Shown here piece by piece: positions 59,432-59,654 of a DNA stretch of 64,000 nucleotides (its first letter is position 1; every line of letters starts with the position of its first letter). The translations under genes were made by a program, and so were the position numbers. The notes below the pieces were generated by a model. That model did not search any database. It worked only from the letters and a program-made list of their open reading frames with translations, and was not told the DNA's origin. The stretch covers positions 2,880,001-2,944,000 of the forward strand of contig OZ244922.1 of NCBI GenBank assembly GCA_965221905.1. Direction: 5' to 3'. Source of the DNA: Chloroflexota bacterium. Its GTDB lineage: Bacteria > Chloroflexota > UBA11872 > VXOZ01.

Positions 59432-59464
59432 TGCCTCCCTCCTGCTATACTATGGCTGGCGCTC

Positions 59465-59615
59465 CCATGCAGTCCCTGCCTTACGGATACGGACTTCATG
59501 TCCCGGTAACTGTTCGGGCTCTGGGGGAGCTCGGCAGGTGTGGCGACCACTCTGAGCCACGGTCTGCCAGACCTAGGACGAACCGGTCTGCCACGCCTGC
59601 TCCCATTCTATCTCC
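59465..59615 (-). ncRNA. Putative IS110 bridge RNA (ends approximate)
   Basis: Two stem/internal-loop modules: target guides GTTCGTCCT (59583-59575) and GGCTCAG (59558-59552); donor guides ACAGTTAC (59513-59506) and GTAAG (59484-59480). Confidence 0.82.
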
Positions 59616-59654
59616 CTTTTCCAAGATATAAGGGCGAACGGGAAAGTGAAAAAC

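Follow-up and report, generated by a model that had tools for sequence, protein, structure and literature searches.

A probable bridge-RNA-guided insertion sequence of the IS110 subgroup in a REP-like palindrome of a Chloroflexota genome

The bridge RNA class of the IS110 family, its loop architecture, its targeting of REP sequences and the promoter rebuilt by circularization have been published, and thousands of orthologs have been predicted computationally (PMC11208160). In IS621 the left guide base-pairs to the target's bottom strand and nine RNA bases pair discontiguously with seven donor bases; a right target guide of 7 nt is reported to improve specificity when engineered (PMC11208160). 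The composite active site of the IS621 recombinase is formed by D11, E60, D102, D105 and S241, and the concept of handshake guides used below is taken from the same report (PMC11208158). REP targeting has been described for IS621 (PMC11208160) and for ISPpu10 (bioRxiv 10.64898/2026.03.19.712850).

The locus described here lies in a window of 64,000 nucleotides of a Chloroflexota bacterium (GenBank assembly GCA_965221905.1, contig OZ244922.1, positions 2,880,001 to 2,944,000); coordinates are window positions. We interpret 58481-59630 (minus strand) as a complete, recently active insertion sequence of the IS110 subgroup with a bridge RNA and a DEDD/Ser recombinase, at a probability of roughly 0.9. 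In the IS1111 subgroup (seekRNA) the guide RNA lies downstream of the recombinase gene and the right end is long. Membership of that subgroup was rejected: the element ends just 15 nt past the stop codon (58481-58495) and the structured RNA lies upstream.

Element limits, copies and recombinase

The element, its target and its gene are laid out as follows.

58481-59630, minus strand: IS110-family element without core, same span in six copies
59631-59632, minus strand: CT core, left copy, end of the left target; CT abuts both ends in 6/6 copies
58479-58480, minus strand: CT core, right copy, start of the right target; CT abuts both ends in 6/6 copies
59633-59639, minus strand: left target GTTCGCC, 5' arm of a REP-like palindrome; GTTCGTC in four other copies
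58474-58478, minus strand: right target GAGCC, identical in 6/6 copies
58460-58480, minus strand: rest of the interrupted REP-like repeat, CTGAGCCTGTCGAAGG..., of a family of at least 214 copies
58496-59431, minus strand: recombinase gene, 311 aa (Pfam PF01548, 2.7e-21; PF02371, 1.7e-19)

Read on the minus strand, the left flank ...CCGTTCGCC is followed by CT, the element start TATATCTTGG, a leader of 199 nt and the ATG at 59431. The frame of 311 codons (end 58496) is followed by 15 bases that end in ...ACAGTTT, then by CT and then by GAGCCTGTCGAAGG. The element thus measures 1150 bp without the core, with a CT dinucleotide at either side. The preliminary description had assigned 59432-59632 to the RNA-bearing end; this stands for the leader and does not for 59631-59632, the core/target dinucleotide outside the element.

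Limits and copy number were observed directly. A whole-genome search found six copies in the 3.52-Mb single-contig genome, each with the identical span of 1150 bp between CTs, and the CT core is kept at both junctions in all six. The other five copies are mutually identical, and the window copy is set apart by one base at element position 133 (window 59498), which falls in the second hairpin's apical loop. The reading frame is open in all six. The flanking DNA is unrelated among the copies past about 11 nt on the left and about 16 nt on the right; since the DNA beyond the shared repeat is unrelated, these are six independent insertions and not a duplicated segment. Copy number differs among genomes of the genus: six here and one in G005, while G006 has 14 copies of a sister element. 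Besides the six copies, the genome holds an unrelated DEDD fragment of the IS110 family at G000:C1:352624-352932 (plus strand, 37.9 bits); it contains two in-frame TGA codons and is probably a decayed element.

The predicted protein carries an N-terminal RuvC-like DEDD domain (PF01548, DEDD_Tnp_IS110; E 2.7e-21, 76.4 bits, cut-off 29) and a C-terminal Tnp domain (PF02371, Transposase_20; E 1.7e-19, 70.4 bits, cut-off 21.3). In the alignment D8, E52, D94 and D97, in the motifs GID, EATG and TDxxDA (TD94AID97), stand opposite their IS621 counterparts, and S232-G233 in RDSGT aligns with the catalytic SG of IS621; the IS621 chain numbering would, on our reading of this alignment, be shifted by two residues. 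Solved structures matched over residues 4-305 were ISCro4 (9t56, E 1.6e-44) and IS621 (8wt6, E 2.4e-42). Both Pfam domains and these full-length structure matches bear out the earlier assignment as an IS110-family bridge recombinase ortholog. The nearest loci by protein, at 99% and 82% identity, are both in Chloroflexota bacterium MAGs, which agrees with the Chloroflexota host proposed earlier, and the protein cluster at 90% identity has 13 members, all from metagenome assemblies and none named.

Fold of the leader RNA and its agreement with the insertion sites

The leader was divided into two modules, listed here with their guides.

59534-59600, minus strand: target-binding loop module (stem, internal loop, hairpin), positions 1-67 of covariance model R1
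59575-59583, minus strand: left target guide GUUCGUCCU, 7 nt plus CU core; matches flank plus core 9/9 in four copies and 8/9 in two
59552-59558, minus strand: right target guide GGCUCAG, 5 nt plus core complement AG; reverse complement of CT+GAGCC in 6/6 copies
59550-59551, minus strand: target-loop handshake-guide position, AG; its first base, A, is paired with T at right-end position 7, relatives having C with G
59461-59530, minus strand: donor-binding loop module, positions 71-140 of model R1
59505-59513, minus strand: left donor guide ACAGUUACC; 7/9 against the right end ACAGTTT plus CT
59480-59484, minus strand: right donor guide GUAAG; pairs with CT+TAT of the left end, five pairs, one of them G:T

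The target module is made up of the stem GCAGGCGTGGCAGACC / GGTCGCCACACCTGC, the 5' loop G-GTTCGTCCT-A, the hairpin GGTCT(GGC)AGACC and the 3' loop GT-GGCTCAG-AGT, and the donor module of ACAGTTACC, the hairpin GGAC(ATGAA)GTCC and GTAAG. Every string quoted earlier for two stem/internal-loop modules upstream of the recombinase was recovered on the minus strand at its place. A long non-coding left end (199 nt) upstream of the gene with a two-stem-loop fold is the arrangement of the IS110 subgroup.

Model R1 was based on three sequences (the window, L016 and L017) and on a two-module structure of 35 pairs written by hand, and was searched in 34 sources, namely the window and 33 of the 43 loci found by protein. 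It gave 24 matches at E <= 0.024, all directly upstream of a recombinase and on the same strand; at E <= 1 three weak reverse-strand matches were added, as were L046 and L020. In the 24-row alignment (21 distinct rows), which was fitted to the model and is hence biased towards structure, 92.1% of the cells form standard pairs and 23 of the 35 pairs show compensatory changes on both sides; many rows are close kin, most being from Acidobacteriaceae, and about 6-8 lineages are independent. None of 500 shuffles reached any of five measures, and sliding the partners by 1-3 columns lowered pairing to 22-47%. Helices 1 and 2 of the target module are 89% and 88.5% paired, with compensatory pairs in 9/14 and 4/5, and helices 3-5 of the donor module are 99%, 100% and 88.5% paired. 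The two-loop fold, for which folding and covariance scoring had been proposed as a check, is thus observed as a conserved and covarying feature upstream of the recombinase in 24 loci.

Folded as a single sequence, the leader is not significantly more stable than its shuffles (z -1.59; 11 of 200 shuffles equal). This fold yields the first module and the outer stem of the second, the minimum-energy structure also pairing bases within the internal loops. RNAalifold on a plain MAFFT alignment was set aside; it gave a poor consensus (-13.6 kcal/mol) because the stems are misaligned there.

The first loop fits the target in the manner of the IS110 subgroup, with its 5' side in the same sense and its 3' side complementary. 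The window copy is flanked by GTTCGCC-CT on the left and CT-GAGCC on the right, and the matches described previously, 8/9 for the left guide and 7/7 for the right, are both correct for it. Left flank plus core reads GTTCGTCCT in four copies and GTTCGCCCT in two, including the window copy. Inspection of the other copies, which had been named as a possible source of contradiction, placed all six at GTTCG(T/C)C-CT-GAGCC with guides that fit each flank. This is the natural target, and in the REP-like palindrome it occupies the top of the 5' arm. By analogy with IS621 pairing, the single mismatch of the left guide would be U opposite G; a U at guide position 6, for which A and G are both possible partners, would account for insertions in both variants of the repeat.

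Unoccupied exact sites in the genome number 61, ten of them GTTCGTCCTGAGCC (T type) and 51 GTTCGCCCTGAGCC (C type). Occupancy is 4/14 for the T type versus 2/53 for the C type (Fisher p 0.015), as expected if a perfect guide match is preferred. Of 120 unoccupied GTTCGYCCTGAGC sites 61 go on with C, and all six insertions are at GAGCC, which fits a right guide reading five positions beyond the core. The first base after the 3' target guide, at the handshake position, gives A-T here and C-G in other lineages and fits in 18/19 rows; the exception, L037, looks misaligned. In the donor loop the handshake base is G opposite the left-target C in 22/23 rows, with L020 as the exception.

The 199-nt leader was shuffled 300,000 times; 62 shuffles contained the left word of 9 nt, 6,089 contained the right word of 7 nt, and a single one contained both. 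An unanchored search for words shared by leader and target did no better than chance, the shared 7-mer being typical of shuffles; core anchoring therefore matters, and significance was drawn from the core-anchored words, the other five copies and covariation across relatives. The unanchored result is what would be expected if the guide matches were accidental or a by-product of repeat-rich DNA, with short GC-rich words recurring between leader and repeat. We give this explanation practically no credence: the two anchored words coincide in only one of the 300,000 shuffles, they occupy the two strands of a single internal loop, where their positions are homologous in 24 loci, and they covary with the flanks.

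The second loop fits the joined element ends, also as in the IS110 subgroup, less well than the target loop fits the target. As had been described, ACAGTTAC matches the right end plus the first core base in 7/8 positions and GTAAG pairs with CTTAT with one G:T. The left donor guide is mismatched at position 7, where it has an A, and at the second core position, where it has a C. The right donor guide matches in 4/7 when its seven positions are read contiguously; AU at 59487-59488 may extend it across a 2-nt skip, by analogy with the discontiguous pairing of IS621. Among relatives the donor guides match in 7-8/9 positions on the left and mostly in 6-7/7 on the right (4-5/7 in L018-L020). The A opposite right-end position 7 is common to all Chloroflexota sister elements, and the left donor guides of relatives show no constraint at the two core-pairing positions (CC, CT, CA, TC, TA, CG, GT); the mismatches are therefore family traits and not signs of decay. 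All sister elements have them, including the 14-copy one, so they do not prevent spread.

Host repeats and guide changes among relatives

The description of the target as a host palindromic repeat was upheld. CTGAGC(C/T)TGTCGAAG occurs at least 214 times in the genome, and the repeat consensus CCGTTCGTCCTGAGCCTGTCGAAGGGTGAACGG is an imperfect palindrome in which variants of one arm are matched by variants of the other (GTCC...GGAT, GTGC...GCAC, GCCC...GGGT).

The insertion in the window interrupts the second palindrome of a composite repeat about 147 nt long (59633-59722 and 58416-58478), with two REP-like hairpins, the inverted ends CTCATAAATAG / CTTTATGAGATGAG and the direct repeat CTAGAAG. 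Five other full-length copies of this unit, 68-78% identical, are present in the genome; it looks like a MITE because the orthologous spacer in G005 lacks the whole unit. The unit's first palindrome, CCGTTTCGTGC...GCACGAAACGG (59656-59694, minus strand), is followed by GTTTTT and lies just downstream of a 199-aa gene (59792-60391); it resembles an intrinsic terminator whose loop is 13 nt long and was not listed by the terminator scan, which admits loops of 3-8 only. Tandem arrays related to the palindrome were seen at G005:C1:3096752-3098237 (about 40 units, 37-nt period, 25 nt of the palindrome matched exactly) and at G000:C1:2566060-2566209 (units from the repeat core, 26-nt period). The gene downstream of the insertion (57582-58397, minus strand) starts with MPELPEVETIRR and ends with a CxxC...CxxC zinc finger, both of which we take to be the signature of a putative formamidopyrimidine-DNA glycosylase (MutM/Fpg).

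An exact empty orthologous site for the window locus was not obtained in G005, G004, G003, G006 or G001. In G005 and G004 the flank matches overlap by 7 nt, so that repeat module and element are both missing (the sequence was read in G005), and in G003, G006 and G001 the orthologous spacer holds different sequence.

Guides and flanks of the relatives were extracted by rule from the model alignment. Over the seven non-core positions of the left guide, matches to the own flank average 5.4, versus 3.0 for the flanks of other lineages. Six independent lineages together match at 32/42 positions, a value equalled or bettered by 3 of 720 permutations. For the right guide (five non-core positions, four lineages) agreement is 19/20, reached only by the identity among 24 permutations; the right end of L018 could not be placed independently of its guides. 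Weaker left matches occur in L019 and L020 (6/9), L053 (6/9) and L038 (5/9).

In the Acidobacteriaceae elements (L021-L057) the left guide GTTCATCCT and the flank TGTCATCCT agree at 7/9 in nearly every copy, a pattern that reads as one bulged RNA base, i.e. a one-base register shift, and not as two mismatches. Similar one-base register differences were seen in L019 and L020.

Within the genus, related elements at 74-81% DNA identity were found in five genomes among the 30 relatives searched. The guides of the sister element in G006 are GTTCGCCCT on the left and AGCUCAG on the right. The right flank of this element is CTGAGCT in 14/14 copies, and its left flank is GTTCGCCCT in 11 and GTTCACCCT in one, the left end being truncated in the other two. 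In these two (L102 and L103; G006:C1:3129349-3130709 and 2241433-2242792) the first 4-8 nt of the left end are missing and the element abuts ...GAGACAG(C/T)CTC, a sequence similar to the right end of a different IS110-type element; the arrangement may reflect insertion into, or recombination at, a donor site. Elements in G003 (two loci), G004, G008 and G002-C9 have left guides G(C/A)TGGCCCT and the right guide GGGAGAG, and their sites read ...C(C/T)(C/T/A)GGCCCT on the left and CTCTCCC on the right, the guides matching 7/9 and 7/7. One of the two differences on the left is again a U opposite a target C.

Compared with the window RNA, the retargeted RNAs differ at 6/12 positions of the target guides, at 1-2/12 of the donor guides and at 13-14/120 elsewhere (Fisher p 0.002-0.003 for the excess in the target guides). 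This pattern, with the target loop varying and the donor loop kept, matches the published observation that the first internal loop of bridge RNAs is poorly conserved and the second much more conserved (PMC11208160). Guides and flanks are thus observed to change together across lineages and among sisters in the genus, in keeping with the covariation check suggested at the outset. Of the evidence assembled here, natural retargeting within one genus is the strongest.

The same comparisons bear on the possibility that the leader is a mere cis-regulatory 5' UTR of the transposase, such as an attenuator or stability element, with the protein picking the target. Although the unexceptional single-sequence fold would accord with such a role, it is the loops and not the stems that covary with insertion sites, across lineages and in near-identical sisters, and the strand rule is that of IS621, with the 5' side in target sense and the 3' side complementary (PMC11208160). 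A purely regulatory leader is accordingly very improbable, and a guide function of the loops is preferred.

Two unrelated repeats, GTTCGYC-CT-GAGCY and ..GGCC-CT-CTCCC, are targeted in one genus with scaffold and donor loop almost unchanged, and half of the 12 target-guide positions are replaced versus about 11% elsewhere. One could suppose that both target guides were switched by concerted acquisition, through inter-element recombination or target copying, and not by stepwise point mutation; we regard this as an unlikely, speculative reading. If it were true, the clade would lend itself to the study of bridge RNA reprogramming as it occurs in nature.

Predicted circle-junction promoter and comparison with known systems

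Two further features would become adjacent if the element ends were joined.

58494-58499, minus strand: right-end -35 box TTGACA, which overlaps the stop codon (computed circle junction)
59623-59628, minus strand: -10 box TATCTT in the left end (computed circle junction)

With sigma-70 consensus rules assumed valid in Chloroflexota, the computed circle junction yields TTGACA-17-TATCTT; no sigma-70-like promoter was found on either strand of the integrated stretch 58300-59800. Relatives show the identical -35 box at the same distance from the right end. If this promoter is used, the sequence predicts an RNA start near 59616, and 59617-59630 would be donor DNA and not RNA. Only about 16 nt would then precede the first stem, and the RNA would therefore be without the 5' stem-loop that IS621 has. 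In the Acidobacteriaceae relatives, on the other hand, the 5' side carries one or two additional hairpins.

From homology to IS621 the following cycle is proposed as a whole. The element would excise as a circle, the joined ends placing the right-end -35 box 17 nt from the left-end -10 box, and the leader would be transcribed from about 59616, probably with the recombinase mRNA behind it. The RNA would fold into the two internal-loop modules and be bound by the recombinase, with ACAGUUACC and GUAAG of the second loop holding the joined element ends. Recombinase tetramers would then join the two duplexes and catalyse strand exchange at the CT core via a phosphoserine intermediate.

Parts of the stretch are contained in 20 of 24 listed public runs, two of which are RNA libraries labelled sponge metagenome. 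Four runs, two RNA and two likely DNA, were examined, all of them consisting of contigs. The RNA-library contigs (X18, 58545-58833 and 58996-59276; X19, 58495-58685 and 59059-59391) cover parts of the coding sequence only, and DNA can occur in RNA libraries; they say nothing for or against expression of the leader. No end-to-end circle junction was present among the joints listed in the four contig runs, the joints listed and a loose end at 58480 fitting other repeat copies.

An alternative is an element whose anatomy has been read correctly and whose mobility has been lost, for example through missing host factors or expression, so that guide/site agreement would record past activity. The four contig runs gave no RNA, circle or polymorphic empty site for the genome, and the donor-loop pairing is mismatched, both of which would suit such an element. 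However, the six copies lie within one base of each other with six open frames, copy number varies among genomes of the genus (6 here, 1 in G005, 14 of the sister in G006), the catalytic motifs are intact, and the donor mismatches are common to all sisters, the 14-copy element included. We consider lost mobility improbable and retain the reading of a recently active element.

No Rfam family matched at its cut-off. The only match, in the window and in L017, was to RF02234 (sX15) on the strand opposite the leader (59454-59609, plus strand; 45.6 bits, gathering cut-off 55), and eight other loci of relatives gave none at E <= 0.01. Membership of sX15 was rejected, the score lying below the cut-off and on the strand opposite the recombinase. 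Conversely, the bridge-RNA model matches the asX7 strand of the sX15/asX7 locus of the Xanthomonas plasmid pXCV183 (RF02234; PMC3300014) with 62.2 bits, at L059 1386-1525 (minus strand; NC_007507 116385-116524). That locus is a remnant in which only the first codons of a recombinase-like frame (MNGIGIDV...) follow the RNA, and the annotated ORF beside it has no Pfam match. RF02234 appears to have been curated on the strand antisense to an IS110 bridge RNA. sX15 and asX7 are known as an antisense pair, with 10 sX15/asX7 homologs in Stenotrophomonas maltophilia (PMC3300014); none of the publications searched mentions both sX15 and IS110.

The suggestion that ortholog and target might be new is consistent with the unnamed 13-member cluster and with our search, in which no published account of this ortholog was found; the tables of predicted orthologs supplementing PMC11208160 could list it or its relatives. 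The element offers a compact bridge recombinase (311 aa, 1.15 kb) that is fully readable, from a phylum for which our literature search found sparse work on IS110 bridge RNAs, and its natural 7-nt right guide is a feature engineered in IS621. The comparative result is more useful. At least three natural guide sets on one scaffold occur in the genus, at several to 14 sites each, and provide a ready-made reprogramming experiment with guide/target pairs to test, leaving the known mechanism unchanged.

The closest solved structure is the ISCro4 transposase (PDB 9t56; E 1.6e-44, residues 4-305), a likeness at the level of protein alignment. ISPpu10 of Pseudomonas putida (bioRxiv 10.64898/2026.03.19.712850) is described as having a bridge RNA without 5' stem-loop, a junction promoter, a strict REP preference and tolerance of a G-U wobble at the left-target interface, traits that the element would share. 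The left target of ISPpu10 has its partner upstream, in a 5' hairpin by which recognition is gated, whereas the palindrome partner in the present element is found downstream of the right target, so that insertion splits the hairpin.

IS621 of Escherichia coli (PMC11208160, PMC11208158) resembles the element in both Pfam domains, in the aligned DEDD and Ser motifs over residues 4-305, in a left-end RNA with target loop then donor loop, in the CT core, the REP-type targets and the junction promoter (here a predicted one), and in 9-nt left guides in DNA sense with complementary 3' guides. The right target guide is 7 nt here versus 4 nt in wild-type IS621, for which 7 nt is an engineered or ortholog variant. 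If the predicted start holds, the ~16 nt before the target loop leave no room for the IS621 5' stem-loop. The recombinase has 311 aa against 326 aa, and target and host phylum also differ. Published work already covers the mechanism and architecture, REP targeting, right guides of extended length, tolerance of wobble pairs and the junction promoter, and the element is a well-documented new example of a kind of RNA-guided recombinase known since 2024, not a new system.
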